IMG/VR virus record: IMGVR_UViG_3300047160_000733
DNA: 64,000 bases
Source: a virus
Direction: 5' to 3' (one strand)
A model generated the notes under the pieces. That model had not been told where the DNA came from. It saw nothing but the letters and a program-made list of their open reading frames with translations, and ran no database searches. The position numbers and the translations under genes were made by a program. Shown one piece after another: positions 3,191 to 36,170 of the stretch. Position 1 is the stretch's first letter; each line of letters begins with the position of its first letter.

Positions 3191-3285
3191 GATGTATTTC
3201 CTGTTGTGCGTTGTGCCATTGTTGGCGGTTAAATCTCTTTATCAGGTGCCTATAGTCTCATAGGCTAGGCACCTTGTAAAGTAAT

Positions 3286-3531
3286 TTATTGAGCGTTTAA
3301 AACCTGTTTCCCTTTAGCGGTAATGATTACACCGCGAATATCGAAATAGGAAGCACTCAGTGAGATTAAACCCTTCTCTAGCAATACACGTGCAACTGTG
3401 GTAACAGCGCAACCACTCATAAACCAACGATAGGTATTATTTGTTGTATCAGCCAGCATCTTTGCATCGCTGTTTAGTTGAGATAAAACGCGGGTCTGTG
3501 CGGCGGTCAATTTGATAGTGGTAGTAGTCAT
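3286..3531 (-). CDS. hypothetical protein
   Basis: 81-aa ORF downstream of promoter 3585-3613. Confidence 0.6.
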   Translation of the reverse strand: MTTTTIKLTAAQTRVLSQLNSDAKMLADTTNNTYRWFMSGCAVTTVARVLLEKGLISLSASYFDIRGVIITAKGKQVLNAQ

Positions 3532-4854: not shown

Positions 4855-5148
4855 TTATAAAAGAAAAGCAATCTCTTCTGCTTTTGCATCAACCACAAAG
4901 TAAACATGAGAACGATCACGCGCTCCCAGCGTGACGGCTAGATCCTCACACTCTCGCAGTGTACCAAATGCGGCGAACTCTTTAAACTTGTGATCATGGG
5001 TACGGTACAACACGCCATAATCACGGCTGACACTCTCCCAGCCTTTCGAGAACTCCGCCACCACTGCCGGATCTTTATAGCGTGATGCATTGATCGCGCC
5101 GTTACGCGCCGCCTGTTGCCCTTCAATGTAATATTTAGATACTTGCAC
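4855..5148 (-). CDS. hypothetical protein with Rmf-like N-terminal motif
   Basis: GTG start. YIEGQQAARNGAINASRYKDPAVVAEFSKGWES resembles the G-x-x-A-x-x-G ... P ... W-x-x-GW pattern of ribosome-modulation-factor-like domains. Based on recollection only. Confidence 0.55.
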   Translation of the reverse strand: MQVSKYYIEGQQAARNGAINASRYKDPAVVAEFSKGWESVSRDYGVLYRTHDHKFKEFAAFGTLRECEDLAVTLGARDRSHVYFVVDAKAEEIAFLL

Positions 5149-5151
5149 TCT

Positions 5152-5316
5152 CTAGGCCTCCACGGCATAAACTTTGATAAAATGGATCTGCTCTGTTGGG
5201 TGTTTCTCCCTAAGATCTTTTAGGATAATGGCCTTTGCTTCTACTTCGCTGTAGGCCTTCACATCCTGATCCCCGTAAAAGTTACCGATCCGCCACTGAA
5301 TGGAATATTTTTTCAC
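5152..5316 (-). CDS. small hypothetical protein (54 aa, below ORF-track cutoff)
   Basis: Hand translation from GTG 5316: MKKYSIQWRIGNFYGDQDVKAYSEVEAKAIILKDLREKHPTEQIHFIKVYAVEA. TGAGGA lies upstream. Exactly fills the gap between 5319 and 5148. Confidence 0.45.
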   Translation of the reverse strand: MKKYSIQWRIGNFYGDQDVKAYSEVEAKAIILKDLREKHPTEQIHFIKVYAVEA

Positions 5317-5318
5317 TT

Positions 5319-5633
5319 TTAGTAGTCCTCAACTCGATAGGTGTTTAATGTATCCCGTTTGTTTTGTTGCTCGCAATAGGATTCAGCTTTTTGTTTTGCA
5401 TTGTCGCCGGAAAATACCGCGCCTGTTCCGTTGTTGGTACACGTTACCAGATACGCCGGATCATCATGGCGATTCATAAAGGCTGGCACATTCTTTCGAT
5501 AATTCCACCCGCAAGACTCATGCCCCATAGTGCCCGCCTGATCACAGTTACAACGTTCTAAATCATCCTCGATTGGGGTGCGGCCTGTTGCCTGTTGGAA
5601 GTATTCAGCGGTGATGATCTTTAATGCTTTCAT
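5319..5633 (-). CDS. hypothetical Cys/His-rich protein
   Basis: 104-aa ORF (CNCDQAGTMGHESCGWNY). Confidence 0.65.
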   Translation of the reverse strand: MKALKIITAEYFQQATGRTPIEDDLERCNCDQAGTMGHESCGWNYRKNVPAFMNRHDDPAYLVTCTNNGTGAVFSGDNAKQKAESYCEQQNKRDTLNTYRVEDY

Positions 5634-5709
5634 GGTTCCGTGTCCTGTTTATTGTGGCGGGCTATCCCGCCGATGTGGTAAATATAGCCCAGTTAAAAAT
5701 CCATTGCAA

Positions 5710-5886
5710 CTAGTTTAGCGGTTTAATTTCAACGTCCAGAACTTCACCACGCAACAATTCAAACGTATAGAAAAGATCCTGATACACTATAGAGACAACG
5801 GTTAAAACCCCTTCATTGTGCTGTGTGTCTGTTATGCTGTGGATCTTCCCGTATCTTCTGCAATCTTTGTATAGTCTGTTATTCAT
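5710..5886 (-). CDS. hypothetical protein
   Basis: ORF-track 5710..5916 trimmed to the ATG at 5886 (MNNRLYKD...) with AAGGAAAG RBS. The longer start overlaps the -10 at 5915-5920. Confidence 0.5.
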   Translation of the reverse strand: MNNRLYKDCRRYGKIHSITDTQHNEGVLTVVSIVYQDLFYTFELLRGEVLDVEIKPLN

Positions 5887-5914
5887 GGCTGCTTTCCTTG
5901 TATGTAGTCCGATC

Positions 5915-5943
5915 ATTATGGCTGTATATCGTGGCTAGGTCAA
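5915..5943 (-). promoter_or_regulatory. sigma70-type promoter
   Basis: Minus strand TTGACC-N17-CATAAT. Confidence 0.6.
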
Positions 5944-5964
5944 AGATTTTTATGATTTATTTTG

Positions 5965-5993
5965 TTGCTTTCTGTTTTTGTGTGGTCTATAAT
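5965..5993 (+). promoter_or_regulatory. sigma70-type promoter facing the ORF-free locus
   Basis: Plus strand TTGCTT-N17-TATAAT. Divergent from 5915-5943. No translatable ORF with an RBS follows it. Confidence 0.55.
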
Positions 5994-5999
5994 TCTGTT

Positions 6000-6540
6000 G
6001 AACTTAAGGAACAACGCGCCACCCCCACGGCGAAAAGGCGGGGCTAGGGCTTCGGCACAAGGTGGATCGCCGGTAGCTCGGCCTGAAAAAGTTTTGTAAA
6101 GATTGAAAATAATGCTTGATCGGTGGCGTGGTTCTGCTATTATTATCACATAGCGGGAACACAGAAACCGGAGTTCAAAACACCGGAGGTGCCCGCTATT
6201 CCGGTAATGAGAATGATTATCATTCAACAATCTAAATGCGAATGATTCGTATTTCGCCTCGAAAAAAATCCTCCGATGAAAAATAATTTTGATTTTGTGA
6301 AACCATAAAAAATTTTTTGCGCCCTACCCTGCCGTAACGATTACAAAACCGAATTTGAAAAATCGATCGAGATCCTTGGAAAAATTTTACCGCCCTACCC
6401 TTCTCGACAAATTACGAAAGCTACATCGAGAAACAGATCGAGATCCTAAATTTTGGTAGGTGTAGATTTTATGAGCGCCCTGCCCTGCCCGCTATATTGT
6501 GATTGCTAGATTGAAAAGTAGATCGAGATCCTAAAATGTT
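6000..6540 (+). ncRNA. candidate untranslated transcript (GC-rich structured 5' part plus three-repeat array); 3' end unknown
   Basis: Starts about 7 nt after the -10 of the 5965-5993 promoter. The only plus-strand ATG ORFs are 13 aa or shorter or lack an RBS. Several GC stems are present, e.g. AGCGGG...CCGG-AGTTCAAAACA-CCGG...CCCGCT at 6151-6197. Strand and extent are inferred. Confidence 0.3.
6319..6532. repeat. three bipartite direct repeats (58 nt each; starts 6319, 6390, 6475)
   Basis: Each unit is GCGCCCTACCCTGCC-like (15 nt) + 31 nt semi-conserved + GATCGAGATCCT (12 nt, identical in all three). The 31-nt spacing is exact in all copies. Inter-unit linkers are 13 and 27 nt. Confidence 0.9.
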
Positions 6541-6795
6541 AGGTATCCTTCTATTGCCTCAGTTATGTTTCTTACCGTGAGAATACTCAACTATTTCTGT
6601 GGATGCTGCCATTATGCGGGACACAGTGAGGAGATGTTCTTAATGGTGGTAGATTGTGTGGGAATATCTCTGAGGGTCTTACAATGGCCTGTAGGTATCT
6701 AGAATCTATCTTGAATCCATTTTCATCTCAAAACGAAACGAAGAAATATCCCACAAATATCACAGGCCTTTAAAATATCTAGGATCGGTTTTTGT

Positions 6796-7623
6796 CTACG
6801 GTTGGAAATCGCATCGGGCTTTCAAATATCCCAGTGGGTAGTCCTTACCGTTAAGCATTTTATACATCTTAATTTCATTCTCTGTTGGTGACAGGTAGTC
6901 CTCAAAGGAATCAAATAGGTCATCATACTTACCAAAGGATTGTTTGTACCCTTTATCAATGTACCCCTTAGATGGAACGTAGTCATAATGGGACTGTTTA
7001 AATGTTGTTACTCCTTCCTCAGATTCAAAACTTAGGCAAGTACCATCCCAACGTATATCACACCCTTGACGGTGATGGAGGTAATAGTGGGAGGAGTATC
7101 CTTCACCGCGCCGAGCTATGTCATACACGAACCTATTTGAATCGTGCATCCCAAGACGTGTCAGTAATTCCTTGTGCATCTGAGACAATCTTTTGTGTTT
7201 TATTTCACCGAATGTGAAGTATCCCTCGATAACCTCCTCTGCTTCAGACAGGCACTCCTCAAGTATTTCAGACACCTCATCAGACATCTCCCCGCTAGAC
7301 AAGGCTAATGATATGTTCTTGTGGATAAGGCACATCTTGTCATGCAGGGTGGAAGCTGTATCCTCCAGCCTTTCAGCATACTCTTCATACTCTAGACAAT
7401 CCGACACAGGAACCTCAAACCCTGATAGATAGTCTCCCTCCCTAGTTATATCTTCTTCTTCACTACGGGACATCTCTTTTACTGCTGACTCTATTGCAGA
7501 TTGGGTTTTCCTCAGCTCAGATACAGGCATCACTGGGCATTTATAGTAGTTGTTTGCTGTATGCTCTATGCCGCCTAGAATGTGGAAGTTTTGAACAGGT
7601 GTTGAGTTATTCTTAATGCTCAT
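6796..7623 (-). CDS. hypothetical highly acidic protein
   Basis: 275-aa ORF rich in D/E (EEEDITREGD, SEAEEVIEG, DDLFDSFEDY). Confidence 0.75.
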   Translation of the reverse strand: MSIKNNSTPVQNFHILGGIEHTANNYYKCPVMPVSELRKTQSAIESAVKEMSRSEEEDITREGDYLSGFEVPVSDCLEYEEYAERLEDTASTLHDKMCLIHKNISLALSSGEMSDEVSEILEECLSEAEEVIEGYFTFGEIKHKRLSQMHKELLTRLGMHDSNRFVYDIARRGEGYSSHYYLHHRQGCDIRWDGTCLSFESEEGVTTFKQSHYDYVPSKGYIDKGYKQSFGKYDDLFDSFEDYLSPTENEIKMYKMLNGKDYPLGYLKARCDFQP

Positions 7624-7684
7624 GTACGGCCTCTGGTTGTGTTTAGTTTCATCGGTATGGTGATTGTATATCTTTAAGTGTTTA

Positions 7685-7713
7685 AATGCAACAGCGGGCC
7701 TCTGAGAGCCCGC
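7685..7713 (-). terminator. possible terminator
   Basis: Minus RNA GCGGGC-TCTCAGAG-GCCCGC followed by TGTTGCATTT. The U tract is weak. Confidence 0.35.
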
Positions 7714-7731
7714 ATTTAGTGTTATGATACC

Positions 7732-8010
7732 TTAATCTCTCAACTCGTAACCTAGGAGGGAGATAATGTTGAATAGCTTATCCATACGGGCCTCTAAGAC
7801 CTTATCAGGTAGGAGCTTATCATTGGTTGGCTTGTATTCCACCATGAAGCTATCGTAGGACAGGGTGTCCTCGATGAATGTTAGGTCAGTATCGTAACAG
7901 AACTCACGAATACGGCCTTCCAGTTCTTGCTTAGTGACCAAAGGTCTAATACCTTCCTTGAGGTCAAGTCGTCGGGTGCGGGCCCGCACTTCTATTCCAT
8001 ACTTACTCAT
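7732..8010 (-). CDS. hypothetical protein
   Basis: 92-aa ORF. Confidence 0.65.
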   Translation of the reverse strand: MSKYGIEVRARTRRLDLKEGIRPLVTKQELEGRIREFCYDTDLTFIEDTLSYDSFMVEYKPTNDKLLPDKVLEARMDKLFNIISLLGYELRD

Positions 8011-8012
8011 GA

Positions 8013-8318
8013 TTAACCCTCCCCTTGAAAAATTAAATCAGGGTATTCCTTGCTAATGTGGATCTGTAGCCAAGTGAATGCCTCTGCAACATGCCGCCGT
8101 GACATCTGTGTTTGCCCACTACCCTCAATATAGAATTTGAAGAATGAGTTCGCACTCTCAACCAATCTTACAAATGGGTATACCTCCCCCAAAGCTGCCT
8201 TGATCTTATTCTCGATTTCAAACATCGCACTAAAACCAAGATCAATCTCTGTATCCTCATCCAACATATATTTCAAGACTTGTGTAGTCATTGAGATATC
8301 CGCCTTGATAAGTTCCAT
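8013..8318 (-). CDS. hypothetical protein
   Basis: 101-aa ORF. Its start shares TAATG with the upstream small ORF. Confidence 0.65.
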   Translation of the reverse strand: MELIKADISMTTQVLKYMLDEDTEIDLGFSAMFEIENKIKAALGEVYPFVRLVESANSFFKFYIEGSGQTQMSRRHVAEAFTWLQIHISKEYPDLIFQGEG

Positions 8319-8497
8319 TATTTCACCTTCTTGTTGGGGTTATCGTGCAACGTATAACGGAAGTAGGCCATGTTGCGTGATGCCTTAACACCGTAGTAGG
8401 TGGGATGACCATATCCAAATACCCATCCGGTAAAGATCAGTGTGTATTCCCACAGTCGCCATACAGAACGACGATAGAATTGTTTAACGTCATGCAT
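8318..8497 (-). CDS. small hypothetical membrane protein (59 aa, below ORF-track cutoff)
   Basis: Hand translation: MHDVKQFYRRSVWRLWEYTLIFTGWVFGYGHPTYYGVKASRNMAYFRYTLHDNPNKKVK. AGAGGA RBS. Translationally coupled at both ends. Confidence 0.5.
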   Translation of the reverse strand: MHDVKQFYRRSVWRLWEYTLIFTGWVFGYGHPTYYGVKASRNMAYFRYTLHDNPNKKVK

Positions 8498-8696
8498 CGC
8501 TTTTATCCTCTTTCTTGATTTGTGTGATTACAATATCCGTGGCCCCGTTTAATGCTAGTGTTGCTCGGATCTCTTCCATTAAAGACTTCTCTGTACGCCA
8601 GCGCCAGAATTGGTACAACTTGAATGAGTATTCCAGATCCTGTGTTGCTACCACTCCAAGTACCTTATACTCTGCTTTGAACTGTAATGCAATCAT
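8490..8696 (-). CDS. hypothetical protein
   Basis: ORF-track 8490..8717 trimmed to the ATG at 8696 (MIALQFKAEYK...) behind TAGGAGA. This removes the overlap with 8705..9250. Confidence 0.6.
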   Translation of the reverse strand: MIALQFKAEYKVLGVVATQDLEYSFKLYQFWRWRTEKSLMEEIRATLALNGATDIVITQIKKEDKSDA

Positions 8697-8704
8697 AATT
8701 TCTC

Positions 8705-9250
8705 CTATCCAATCCAAACATGGATGTCTATGTCTTTATCCGCAAAGAACTCTTCGCGATCCTTTTCACCAATATAGTAAGGTTGACAACGAGCCAAATC
8801 AGTAAAGAACTCTACAGCCTCATCACCCTTAGGTCGGCGTGTTACTACACCGATCTTGTGCCCCTCTTGGATTACAATTGTTGCCAATTGCTTCGCTAGG
8901 TTTACATCCTTGCAGAATAAACCCTCGAAGTCAATAGCTATGTTAAGCTTCTTATCTTTATACTCCTTATCTGGGCGTAGACGGGAGAAATCAGAACAGC
9001 GTTTGATAAGCTCTTCAGCCCGCTGGTTGATCTTACGAGAACCGATATGCCAGTGTACCATCATCACAGAGATTACTGTGGTAGCCGATATGACAGCCGT
9101 TGGATACAAGTTTTCATTGAACATACCAGCCGTATTGGTGATCAATGCTACAACAGACACACATGAAGCGATAACGGCGTACCCTATAAAACACAACCAC
9201 CCAAAATAAAGTGGGAGTTTCACCGCCCACCAAATAATACTCTTAAACAT
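8705..9250 (-). CDS. hypothetical membrane protein with soluble C-terminal domain
   Basis: About three N-terminal TM helices. The C-terminal part has a DxDx-like IAIDFEGLF segment, a degenerate HAD-like motif that I am not confident of. Confidence 0.65.
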   Translation of the reverse strand: MFKSIIWWAVKLPLYFGWLCFIGYAVIASCVSVVALITNTAGMFNENLYPTAVISATTVISVMMVHWHIGSRKINQRAEELIKRCSDFSRLRPDKEYKDKKLNIAIDFEGLFCKDVNLAKQLATIVIQEGHKIGVVTRRPKGDEAVEFFTDLARCQPYYIGEKDREEFFADKDIDIHVWIG

Positions 9251-9549
9251 TTCCGGCCCCCCTCGACTCTCATGTTACACATTCGTGACTTTATCCACAG
9301 TACGGTTGCTTTGCAACCTCTCCACAATGCTACGCTGGATCACCTAACAATTCAACTCTTTTCACACTAAATCCTTCCAGATTTTGTAGTACACCCTAAA
9401 GATCTTTTAAAGATCTCTTATAATTTAGGAGTGTAACGAGTAAATTATATAAAGTAATAACGAGCGTATGCGAGTTATAGAGTTGTGGGTTATCTAGTAT
9501 TAATATACTGTCCCTTTTTGGGGACACACGCTTTTGTTGTCCCCTTCTA

Positions 9550-9951
9550 CTACAACTTCTCAATCTTCCCCGTGTACAGATACACCAGTGATTGGAGAGT
9601 GCCTTCAGTATGCCCTCCCGACCAATGGACACATAGACTGGAGCACAAGTCAAGAATAAGTTCCTCTACTTCTCCCCAGTTGTTATCATTCAAAAGCTTT
9701 AACATCTTACGCTCTGCCTCTGTTGGCTCAGAAGGATACAGAAATGTTTCAAAATCTACCAATTCTGTTACCTCCCCGTTCATGTCTTTAGGGTCATGGG
9801 CCAACTTTGATAGGTTAAAACCTCGGGTATTGATCAGGGATGTGTACACATAATCCTGTACAGGTTCCCCATCCGGAACATGGGTGAGGTAGATTTTAAG
9901 GTCTACCCCCAACCGACCAATATATAATTCATGGGTGATATTGTACATCAT
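9550..9951 (-). CDS. hypothetical protein
   Basis: 133-aa ORF starting 6 nt after the VWA gene stop. Confidence 0.7.
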   Translation of the reverse strand: MMYNITHELYIGRLGVDLKIYLTHVPDGEPVQDYVYTSLINTRGFNLSKLAHDPKDMNGEVTELVDFETFLYPSEPTEAERKMLKLLNDNNWGEVEELILDLCSSLCVHWSGGHTEGTLQSLVYLYTGKIEKL

Positions 9952-9956
9952 TTCTC

Positions 9957-11552
9957 CTATTTGGCGTAACGATCAAAGTTCAGGGCTTTTCCGAACGGAG
10001 CTTGCCAAGAATCGTTGTTGAAGATAACCCACAGAGTGTTCTTGTATTTTTGACTCCACTTCTTACCTTTGTCATCCACACCCTCTTTTACTGAACCGAA
10101 GTAACCGTCCGTGAAGATGATGATCTGGTCGCAATCCTTGATCTCGCTATCAACAAACTTAAATGCACAGTGGCAATCCGTCCCGCCGGACGTAGTGATC
10201 TTGTACTTGACCAACTCTTTTATGTTCTTACGATCATACTTCTGTGGGTTAGCCGCGAATGTTGACCAACAGAACAGAGTGATCTCGAACTCATCAAACT
10301 GACTACCAAAGCCGGAAACCTCTGACCAAACCTTATTAAGTAATGCATCTGTGAATGAACCGGACACGTCGATGCCGATAGCTACACGGATTGTCTTACG
10401 TTTCGACTTGGAAGGCAACACAATACGCTGTGTGTTCTTAATTGCTCCACGGGCACGTAGTACACGTGTTAGCGACCCAGACCGACGGTGGGGCTTCTGG
10501 TACGTAATCTTCGTCCGGCGCATAGATGACAGGCGCTTGATCAGGTATTCAACATAGTTGATCTTTGGCTTAGTCAGAGTTTTAACTAATTCACGCGCTT
10601 CAGGTGGAGCTCCGGCACCCGCCGCTGTGGTAGCATTCACGATAGCTCGTTTCATAGATTCATCGTTGGAGTGCTTTTGGTCCTCCGTTAATCGAGGTTC
10701 AACAGAAGAGTCGATCCCCAAAGCCTTACCAACTTCATTGTTGGTGACATAATCGTCGTCACTATCACCTTGCTCGCCACCTCCGCTAGATGGTGTACCT
10801 GCGCCATGTCCTGACTCACATTTTGGTCCATCAGATTTCTGATTTGTAGGTGTGCCATCGCCCGCGCCCATATGGAAGTCATTACTCATCTTCCCTTTGG
10901 TATCTTTGTTCTTACTCATCAGATCTGTGTAGATCTGCTCTGCCGTCCAACCATCATACTTGTGGTTGATATAGATCTGGGCAAAAGATTCGAACTCTTT
11001 ACCCTCTTCAAAGGTATCCTGCCCCTTCTTGAACCAAGGGTTTCGGCTCATCGCGCAGGATTCCGCATGAGTCTGGATCAAGTCTCCGTTGATATAATAG
11101 TCAGCAGCAATGTTAAACATCACCGGATCGTAGCCCTTACCACGACTTAAGTGGTCACAGATAACGTGACGGACTTCATGCTCAAGGAAGAAGATAACTT
11201 CTTTCAGTGTCTTACGCTTGTAGAAGACATCAATTGACTTCTGGATCTTCTTTTTCTTCTTATCTGACACATTCATCTGAGAGATACGCTGTGAAACATT
11301 GTCCTTACGTTCATCACAGAACCCAGCAATGAATTCAGGGTTAAAGATAATGTCTCGACCATTTGTCGCAATAGTTGGTAGCCAACGGGTATCTGCATAC
11401 ACAGGCATGTTGCTCAACAACGTACCATAGAATGGGCGGTAACGCATAAGCTGGATCTTGGCTGCTTCAATCAGTCGGAATGCTTCTTTCGTTGTTCCCT
11501 TGATTAGGTCGCGCTCGTCTTCTGTCATCAATGCCGGATCGTTGTTTTTCAT
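9957..11552 (-). CDS. VWA-domain protein with N-terminal HExxH metallopeptidase-like domain
   Basis: HEVRH motif (FFLEHEVRHVICDHL). G/S/D-rich linker. C-terminal MIDAS motif DxSGS (IGIDVSGSF). Lies downstream of the AAA+ gene. Confidence 0.85.
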   Translation of the reverse strand: MKNNDPALMTEDERDLIKGTTKEAFRLIEAAKIQLMRYRPFYGTLLSNMPVYADTRWLPTIATNGRDIIFNPEFIAGFCDERKDNVSQRISQMNVSDKKKKKIQKSIDVFYKRKTLKEVIFFLEHEVRHVICDHLSRGKGYDPVMFNIAADYYINGDLIQTHAESCAMSRNPWFKKGQDTFEEGKEFESFAQIYINHKYDGWTAEQIYTDLMSKNKDTKGKMSNDFHMGAGDGTPTNQKSDGPKCESGHGAGTPSSGGGEQGDSDDDYVTNNEVGKALGIDSSVEPRLTEDQKHSNDESMKRAIVNATTAAGAGAPPEARELVKTLTKPKINYVEYLIKRLSSMRRTKITYQKPHRRSGSLTRVLRARGAIKNTQRIVLPSKSKRKTIRVAIGIDVSGSFTDALLNKVWSEVSGFGSQFDEFEITLFCWSTFAANPQKYDRKNIKELVKYKITTSGGTDCHCAFKFVDSEIKDCDQIIIFTDGYFGSVKEGVDDKGKKWSQKYKNTLWVIFNNDSWQAPFGKALNFDRYAK

Positions 11553-35949: not shown

Positions 35950-36170
35950 GTAAGAAAAACAAATTGGTTGAAGTTTTTGTAGACGACGATAGCGAAATGA
36001 TGCGGGTAGACATTGACGGTAAATCTTGGTTCGAGGGTAACTTCTGGGATATTGATCGAGATGGTTGGATCGAGATCATGCAGAAGGCCGGACTTAAGGT
36101 TGATGAGTATTCATATCAATACGGCGATGGTTGTGAAGAAGAAGTTGACGACGAGGAAGAAGAGGAGTAA
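35940..36170 (+). CDS. hypothetical protein with poly-acidic C-terminus
   Basis: Ends CEEEVDDEEEEE. Confidence 0.6.
   Translation: MWMSKKNKLVEVFVDDDSEMMRVDIDGKSWFEGNFWDIDRDGWIEIMQKAGLKVDEYSYQYGDGCEEEVDDEEEEE

Follow-up and report, generated by a model that had tools for sequence, protein, structure and literature searches.

Two kinds of replication origin are the closest described parallels to the locus that we report here. In iteron origins, short direct repeats are clustered at one site: phage lambda ori has four O-binding repeats and plasmid pSC101 has three RepA iterons, classical iterons being 17-22 bp long and about 22 bp apart, and P1 oriR combines short GATC-containing repeats with a spacer of fixed length. 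Transcription-activated or R-loop origins include the T7 promoters 1.1A and 1.1B with their AT-rich region, oriF and oriG of T4, and RNA II of ColE1. The rV5-like phages are widely isolated and are used for therapy and biocontrol, and to our knowledge no replication origin or essential non-coding element has been defined for them; in rV5 itself, skew analysis found only changes tied to the direction of transcription (PMC3606486). Here we describe a three-unit repeat array in a 64,000-nucleotide stretch of viral DNA (IMG/VR record IMGVR_UViG_3300047160_000733; hereafter the window), compare it with its counterparts in the Vequintavirinae and their relatives, and weigh the case that it marks a replication origin.

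A three-unit array and its conserved module

An earlier note on this DNA, made from the sequence alone, described three repeats of 58 nt, each composed of a 15-mer and a 12-mer held 31 nt apart, in a region free of open reading frames (ORFs). Reading positions 5700-7200 and running a repeat finder, we recover all three units. The 15-mers start at 6319, 6390 and 6475 and have zero, three and one mismatches to GCGCCCTACCCTGCC, respectively; the 12-mer GATCGAGATCCT is exact at 6365, 6436 and 6521, and each copy contains a pair of GATC sites at a distance of 6 bp. In every unit 31 nt separate the 15-mer from the 12-mer, and linkers of 13 and 27 nt separate the units. The array, which is overlapped by no ORF other than a 34-aa frame with a TTG start, sits between leftward genes in an ORF-free gap of ~880 nt (~5917-6795). 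The unit as first drawn was too short, because an upstream A/T tract (AAAAAATTTTTT in unit 1) belongs to it; the full repeat is a 68-nt family (D1) in which the A/T tract is followed by the G+C-rich 15-mer, 31 nt and the 12-mer. Pairwise identity among the three units is 65-72%.

Within the 64 kb, the exact 12-mer is confined to the array. With up to three mismatches allowed, the 15-mer matches at five places where 0.47 would be expected; the good matches are the three in the array. Using a 25-nt weight matrix from the units of other phages, trained without those of the window, we obtain scores of 21.4 to 35.9 bits for the three window units (Table 1) and at most 13.4 bits for the rest of the 64 kb. 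Two near-copies of the 12-mer at 36054 and 36068 (36054-36079) lie within a coding region and are attributed to chance, and to the right of the array, partial copies of the module in inverted orientation score below any sensible weight-matrix threshold in most lineages. The paired GATC sites listed in the earlier note do not set the locus apart: GATC is over-represented across the whole window (383 occurrences versus 256 +/- 14 in shuffled sequences), so the GATC content of the array locus is not special.

We read the syntenic gap in 17 phages or contigs, drawn from the Vequintavirinae, an unclassified Serratia group and uncultured contigs, and the array is present at the matching place and in the matching orientation in every one. 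Its carriers comprise Seunavirus, Mydovirus, Certrevirus, Vequintavirus, the unclassified Serratia clade and the uncultured contigs. The number of units is nearly always three, all on one strand; rV5-type phages have two good units and one degenerate unit, and one uncultured contig has a fourth GATCGAG 12 nt past the first. When aligned on GATCGAG, 52 units (43 distinct) give, with zero indels, the consensus a.a.AATACGAT.T.GAAATTGAAAAATC followed by GATCGAGAACC. This conserved module is 36 nt long and usually has an A5-6/T5-7 tract in front of it. AATACG lies 25 nt from GATCGAG in almost every unit, and the best-conserved bases are the CG of TACG and GATCGAG itself. Successive units are spaced 63-71 and then 66-85 bp apart, with no helical phasing. 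Our literature searches turned up no description of this motif or locus. A scan of IMG/VR with three bare GATCGAG motifs was abandoned as a route to further carriers, being overwhelmed by chance matches from G+C-rich phages.

The module differs in several respects from the bipartite repeat first proposed. The 31-nt core had been taken for a spacer of only partial similarity; it holds the best-conserved part of the family-wide module and is therefore not a spacer but the heart of the module. Nor do two half-sites at a fixed distance describe the family. The 15-mer is restricted to the window phage and the Serratia-phage clade, where it stands 46, 43 and 45 nt from GATCGAG rather than at one constant distance, and other genera have unrelated sequence at its position. 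The 31-nt spacing is absent from the nearest relatives, and for the paired sites the relatives read GATCGAGAACC, GATCGAGACCC or GATCGAGTACC, so that of the two GATC sites the first alone is conserved. Conservation among relatives thus extends to the three-copy array, but not to the 15-mer, the 31-nt spacing or the second GATC. We conclude that the array is genuine, conserved and directional, and that it lies in a non-coding locus.

The homologous locus in phage Bas54

A transposon-saturation study (HIDEN-SEQ) of the Vequintavirus Bas54 (MaxBurger, MZ501093) provides insertion data for each annotated gene (preprint 10.1101/2025.11.20.689424). TA-site counts that we derived from the sequence for bas54_0099 to bas54_0103 (21, 3, 11, 15 and 14) match the published table. 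Three annotated genes, bas54_0100 to bas54_0102, lie over the conserved elements at record positions 81475-82064. The first, bas54_0100, covers the two good units and has insertions at one of its three TA sites, with a mean of 5 reads versus ~200 in neighbouring genes; it is listed as NA, and two of its three TA sites fall inside GATCGAGTAC. The second, bas54_0101, covers the A+T-rich spacer and the degenerate unit and is scored 'Essential', with insertions at 0 of 11 TA sites. The third, bas54_0102, covers two modules of promoter, hairpin and palindrome and is scored 'Strong fitness defect', with insertions at 5 of 15 TA sites. The flanking genes, bas54_0099 and bas54_0104 to bas54_0109, have insertions at most TA sites and are non-essential (all scores from 10.1101/2025.11.20.689424).

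Judging from their sequences, bas54_0100, bas54_0101 and bas54_0102 are probably not protein-coding. The start codons of bas54_0100 and bas54_0101 are GTG and TTG, the bas54_0102 ORF is broken by a 1-nt frameshifting indel in a close relative, phage 203, and other annotators omit these ORFs or put different ones in their place. Among six rV5-type phages, the segment from the predicted promoter P2 (Table 1) to the array is nearly invariant at the nucleotide level, and the next 170 nt diverge heavily. These gene-level data from one phage, in which 22 intergenic TA sites beyond the array are not tabulated, suggest that in one genus or more the locus acts as a non-coding element and is essential. 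The ~2-2.5 kb insertion-free intergenic region published for Bas54 is not the array locus, as it lies between bas54_0134 and bas54_0135, ~11 kb off (the other insertion-free non-coding region of this phage, 92,785-95,298; 10.1101/2025.11.20.689424).

A candidate replication origin and its rivals

Among known systems the array is most like iteron or transcription-activated origins, while it lacks, or may lack, several of their defining features. As in lambda ori, pSC101 and P1 oriR, direct repeats in one orientation, here three modules on one strand in the window and in 16 relatives, occupy a non-coding, single-copy locus next to an A+T-rich stretch; GC content is 0.23 at 6261-6320, directly before unit 1, and 0.20-0.25 in the copy of Bas55. 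As in the origins of the T7, T4 and ColE1 type, promoters point into an ORF-free, A+T-rich region, here as predicted from sequence, and any RNA made downstream would be G-rich. The likeness to T7 includes the replisome, which is T7-like in this group: the window polymerase is of the PolA type, and a gp4-type helicase has been described in rV5 (PMC3606486). The array co-occurs with this rV5/ICP1-type PolA replisome. Phapecoctavirus, with an unrelated polymerase, lacks the array: phage phiWec190 keeps the non-coding block upstream of it, but its best weight-matrix score is 2.8 and its polymerase is of an unrelated type (26% identity).

We tentatively favour the proposal, which we rate somewhat short of probable, that this is the iteron-like array of a phage-specific, transcription-activated replication origin. 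We favour it because it ties together the single copy per genome, as expected for a cis-acting site, with the essentiality, the conservation, the promoters, the A+T-rich and G-skewed composition and the co-occurrence with one replisome. The earlier note listed origin iterons, a pac/cos-type array, a partition-like site and a repeated RNA module without choosing among them; of these, a protein-binding, iteron-like origin element is the best fit, and the two-half-site model is not supported. What we infer under the origin proposal is that a protein binds the modules, RNA polymerase runs across them, an R-loop is formed and the locus is where replication begins. Host RNA polymerase would start at two or three sigma-70-type promoters (P1, P2 and P3), against the surrounding genes, and transcription would enter an A+T-rich, structure-poor stretch. 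The three modules would serve as iterons for a phage or host factor, and the A/T tracts of the units could make the DNA bendable and easily opened. The G-rich, C-poor block downstream would favour a stable RNA-DNA hybrid, which could serve as primer for the PolA-type polymerase and as an entry point for the T7-gp4-like primase-helicase.

Vibrio phage ICP1 offers a parallel at the level of the genome, having a related polymerase (48% identity) and two separate cis-acting regions, as Bas54 has two insertion-free regions. Replication of ICP1 uses a theta origin in mid-genome and, apart from it, a late (rolling-circle) origin near pac (PMC7145576), and by analogy these two origins may parallel the two insertion-free or essential non-coding regions of Bas54. 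In the origin region of ICP1, at 54-66 kb, we found neither an array of this kind (weight-matrix maximum 5.0) nor an ORF-free locus to compare with it.

Several observations weigh against an origin or set the array apart from known ones. No Rep/O-type initiator gene lies beside the array, and the adjacent 275-aa gene is not conserved. The window locus has no DnaA box at one mismatch or fewer, no DnaA box is conserved across 14 lineages, and an IHF consensus site is absent from all loci checked. The modules are 36 bp long and 63-85 bp apart, a spacing far above that of classical iteron arrays and not helically phased, and the T7, T4 and ColE1-type origins have no triple conserved module. The promoters of the array locus are of the type used by host sigma-70 polymerase, whereas those of T7 and T4 origins depend on phage polymerase or MotA. 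The G-skewed block downstream is weak or absent in some lineages, and the GC skew of the window switches at ~14 kb, where it tracks gene orientation and not the array locus. Essentiality in Bas54 was scored per annotated gene, in one phage of one genus, and the array proper has 3 TA sites. Origins of T4 and T7 are individually dispensable, in contrast to the essential locus of Bas54, so essentiality alone is no pointer to an origin, being just as compatible with an essential RNA.

An essential RNA is also the rival that survives best. In this alternative, which we consider rather unlikely, the array is the body of a trans-acting non-coding RNA made from P1, P2 or P3, and its three unstructured modules are single-stranded sites that sequester or recruit a host or phage RNA-binding factor, or parts of a regulatory RNA or processed primer. 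In several lineages promoters on the same strand are found directly upstream, the orientation of the modules relative to them is invariant, and the homologous locus is essential in Bas54; an essential RNA accounts for these three observations as well as an origin does. Folding evidence falls on both sides: the upstream hairpin region (6146-6260) folds better than shuffled sequence (z-score -3.13) and the opposite strand of the array folds worse (z-score +2.21), as expected if the array is kept open, but the array itself has no covariation and no excess structure on the + strand (z-score -0.30). Neither the window nor phage 4MG has a terminator-like site called on the + strand after the array, no Rfam family matches, and the A5T6 tracts and variable linkers have no obvious role in an RNA. 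A repeat RNA does have a precedent in the same phage group, the phage-transcribed pseudo-ToxI of phiTE, which like the array consists of tandem repeats in a non-coding locus. The array is not itself such a type III antitoxin mimic: the escape locus of phiTE is elsewhere, pseudo-ToxI lying at 106,714-106,772 and the array locus of this phage at ~39 kb, and ToxI-type repeats, which belong to a class with repeats of 34-45 nt beside a toxin gene or known escape locus, are 36 nt long, near-identical, head-to-tail and folded into pseudoknots, whereas the array units share only the 65-72% identity given above, have variable linkers and show no excess structure.

Less likely still, and in our view improbable, is that the units are transcription-regulatory DNA, either three tandem weak promoters (the A/T tract acting as UP element or -35-like sequence and TACGAT as -10) or operators for a phage regulator that times early-to-middle expression or antisense transcription into the flanking early genes. 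The A5-6T5-7 tracts resemble UP elements; TACGAT, TATAAT or TATATT stands at a fixed position in many units; the locus lies within the early-gene block, next to Fur-box-like palindromes that suggest regulatory input; and phages of this group rely entirely on the RNA polymerase of the host (PMC7344957). However, the -35 positions are poor, the A/T tract is 37-47 nt from the module, and the CG of TACG and GATCGAG are not the bases expected to be conserved in a sigma-70 promoter. That strand has no downstream gene, and in Bas54 insertions are tolerated in the genes between the locus and the next essential gene. Being confined to this one site in the 64 kb, the motif does not constitute a promoter class.

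A packaging (pac or cos) site, another option raised by the earlier note, is very hard to sustain. As in P1 pac, short GATC-containing repeats are clustered, and Dam methylation would control cleavage by terminase; one GATC is invariant in every unit. Moreover, these phages are terminally redundant and some, including phiTE and rV5 (for rV5, PMC3606486), are circularly permuted, and two public records break inside the array. Yet the second GATC is not conserved, the array is far from any terminase gene, and the termini of a relative have been mapped elsewhere: Mydovirus KPP-1 has 514-bp direct terminal repeats at 116,316-116,829, as determined from coverage and PhageTerm (PMC9862379), and its array is at ~125,300-125,470, ~8 kb away, which makes a packaging role unlikely. 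The KPP-1 repeats lie in a separate low-coding region between convergent gene blocks, a region that resembles the insertion-free region 92,785-95,298 of Bas54. As for the broken records, that of EC152 (PP681140) starts inside unit 3 and lacks 8 nt of this unit (ATCGAGTA) at the junction, and PQ002170 has an 80-nt terminal overlap and two units only. Because of this overlap and missing unit, the breaks look like repeat-induced assembly artefacts, and the pattern suggests either assembly breaks at repeats or heterogeneity of unit number in the phage population.

A CRISPR-like array is rejected because the 31-nt 'spacer' is the part conserved across phages and the linkers vary in length, and host mimicry is rejected because the array has zero similarity to 5,426 E. 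coli genomes and 72,556 plasmids. The array belongs to no Rfam family, no CRISPR-type array and no type III antitoxin repeat class.

Surrounding elements, lineage and significance

Table 1. Elements of the non-coding locus in the window, in order of position (P1, P2 and P3 are predicted promoters; weight-matrix scores in bits).
Feature	Position	Strand	Description
P1, sigma-70-like promoter	5965-5993	+	TTGCTT-17-TATAAT; found by eye, -35 matches 3/6, not listed by scanner
P1 block, G+C-rich, conserved	6015-6092	+	CGCCACCCCCACGGCGAAAAGGCGGGGCTA...GGTGGATCGCCGGTAGCTCGGCC; opens the stretch matching 254-258 phage records
P2, sigma-70-like promoter	6116-6143	+	TTGATC-16-TATTAT with TG; found by scanner; also in 4MG and ChuuTotoro
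Long hairpin	6150-6199	+	ATAGCGGGAAC...GTGCCCGCTAT; inverted repeat I5
Two Fur-box-like palindromes	6203-6255 (6203-6227, 6235-6255)		AATGAGAATGATTATCATT, AATGCGAATGATTCGTATT; direct repeat D6
P3-like promoter	6259-6287	+	TCGAAA-17-AATAAT; found by scanner; directly before unit 1, where A+T content is highest
Unit 1	6309-6376	+	A6T6 tract; GC-rich 15-mer 6319-6333; 36-nt module 6340-6375; weight matrix 35.9
Unit 2	6380-6447	+	A5T4 tract; 15-mer 6390-6404; module 6411-6446; weight matrix 21.4
Unit 3	6465-6532	+	Weak A/T tract; 15-mer 6475-6489; module 6496-6531; weight matrix 26.6
G-rich, C-poor block	6591-6700	+	After unit 3; composition conserved, sequence not
AAATATC(A/C)CA repeats	6744-6834	+	Right edge, overlapping the 3' end of the 275-aa gene; families D8 and D12

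The predicted promoters all face against the neighbouring genes. The scanner called three + strand promoters each in 4MG and in the Serratia phage ChuuTotoro and two in the window, at homologous positions. Homologues of P1 were called at 2897-2925 in 4MG and 1456-1485 in ChuuTotoro, and a stronger P3 stands at the equivalent position in both (in 4MG, TTGACA-18-GAAAAT with TG).

The G+C-rich block after P1 is common to two phage subfamilies with unrelated polymerases. A 22-mer from it, CCACGGCGAAAAGGCGGGGCTA, is found unaltered in 10 contigs of IMG/VR, from which the window differs by one additional C. The block matches no Rfam family, and its fold z-score is only -0.45. In Raoultella phage Ro1 it is split by an insertion of ~730 nt that brings with it an ORF, a promoter of its own and another, diverged copy of the block; with this content and no Rfam match, the insertion was rejected as a group I intron. 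Pairing between the 15-mer and the block (GGGGCTAGGGC) fails in the Serratia phages and was dismissed as a coincidence of G/C-rich sequence. Across the window there are zero tRNAs and nothing at the gathering score of Rfam 15, with chance-level matches only (E up to 5) in 5850-6850, and the loci of 11 relatives gave no Rfam 15 match either. The single weak match to the Proteo-phage-1 RNA (E = 0.44) was not repeated in these 11 relatives and was discarded.

Covariation in the long hairpin is weak across 10 lineages (6 pairs, 2 with double changes). The palindromes that follow it are kept in every relative, with three at 29-nt spacing in phiTE. Set beside the E. coli Fur-box consensus GATAATGATAATCATTATC, they agree at as many as 16 of 19 positions (TGAGAATgATTATCA aligned with the 7-1-7 core); judged by sequence, they may be sites for Fur or operators for a phage repressor, or else form RNA hairpins. 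At least seven such palindromes are present in phiWec190 (L011, 1700-1920), which is without the GATCGAG array. Beyond unit 3, the G-rich block reaches a G-skew of +0.45 over 100 nt, within the top 0.1% of local windows. In 8 of 14 lineages a counterpart ranks among the 0.3% most G-skewed local windows; most other lineages have a weak one and Mydovirus has none. No part of the locus evolves faster than this block in rV5-type phages, whereas the array is invariant there. The AAATATC(A/C)CA repeats at the right edge are found in every relative read, and they resemble the T4-late-like motif TggTAaAAtA proposed for rV5.

Next to the locus is an acidic 275-aa ORF (6796-7623, - strand). Relatives have a gene of ~260-280 aa at that place, and rV5-type phages have a different gene beside the locus. 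For the 275-aa protein, tblastn against 50,697 phage records finds no homologue; Pfam, NCBIfam and PDB offer no match, and its sole match, a marginal one, is to an uncharacterised PHROG family. It was considered as a candidate module-binding protein and set aside, there being no homologues and no informative match to a family or structure.

To place the window among known phages, we compared both its non-coding locus and its polymerase. A megablast search of 5000-9000 against the 50,697 phage records returned one conserved stretch, 6059-6248, matching 4MG and phiTE and lying just upstream of the array. With a more sensitive search, this upstream block was recovered from 254-258 Vequintavirinae and Phapecoctavirus records, at 72-84% nucleotide identity, and in the Serratia phages ChuuTotoro and Kashira the alignment runs on into the array. 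The DNA polymerase is most similar to that of ChuuTotoro (66.9% protein identity), followed by Mydovirus and Seunavirus (~65%), rV5-type phages (54%) and ICP1 (48%). The upstream non-coding block is thus better conserved in nucleotides than the polymerase is in protein. With a polymerase at best 66.9% identical to those of known phages, the window is, by sequence, a new lineage near the Vequintavirinae.

Repeats were also noticed in three other contigs. Two unrelated G+C-rich contigs (63-65% G+C) hold very regular arrays of similar boxes. In the first, IMGVR_UViG_3300045922_000102, at least 13 copies of GATCGAGACA-N8-GAGAGAACCA-N8 follow a strict 36-nt period at 9113-9572; this array is 2 kb from a Toprim/VapE primase-helicase gene and adjoins a protein with a weak Transposase_20 match. 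The second (L163) has its array at 3250-3460. Both may serve as a loose analogy for an origin-iteron role, or they may just reflect selection by the search pattern. The third contig, IMGVR_UViG_3300035183_000129 (56% G+C), has several GAAAATCGAGA-type repeats in an ORF-free end at 10300-10631, where three GATCGAGA sites 60 and 78 nt apart lie upstream of a 579-aa ORF.

Our analysis ties a sequence feature to an existing genome-wide fitness dataset, and it points to a conserved element, acting in cis or as RNA, behind an 'essential hypothetical gene' of Bas54. A wider proposal, which we advance as possible but doubtful, is that the whole locus, array included, is an unrecognised essential non-coding element of an entire subfamily of candidate phages for therapy, either a new transcription-coupled origin with three 36-bp modules that some factor reads, or a long non-coding RNA with three single-stranded modules that the phage requires in trans. 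In that case bas54_0101 and similar 'essential genes of unknown function' would not be genes. With a defined 36-bp module, the origin or essential RNA of rV5-like phages becomes directly testable. For genome engineers, the array locus is a region to leave intact, and as a nucleotide-level marker more conserved than the proteins, it helps to recognise divergent members of the group.

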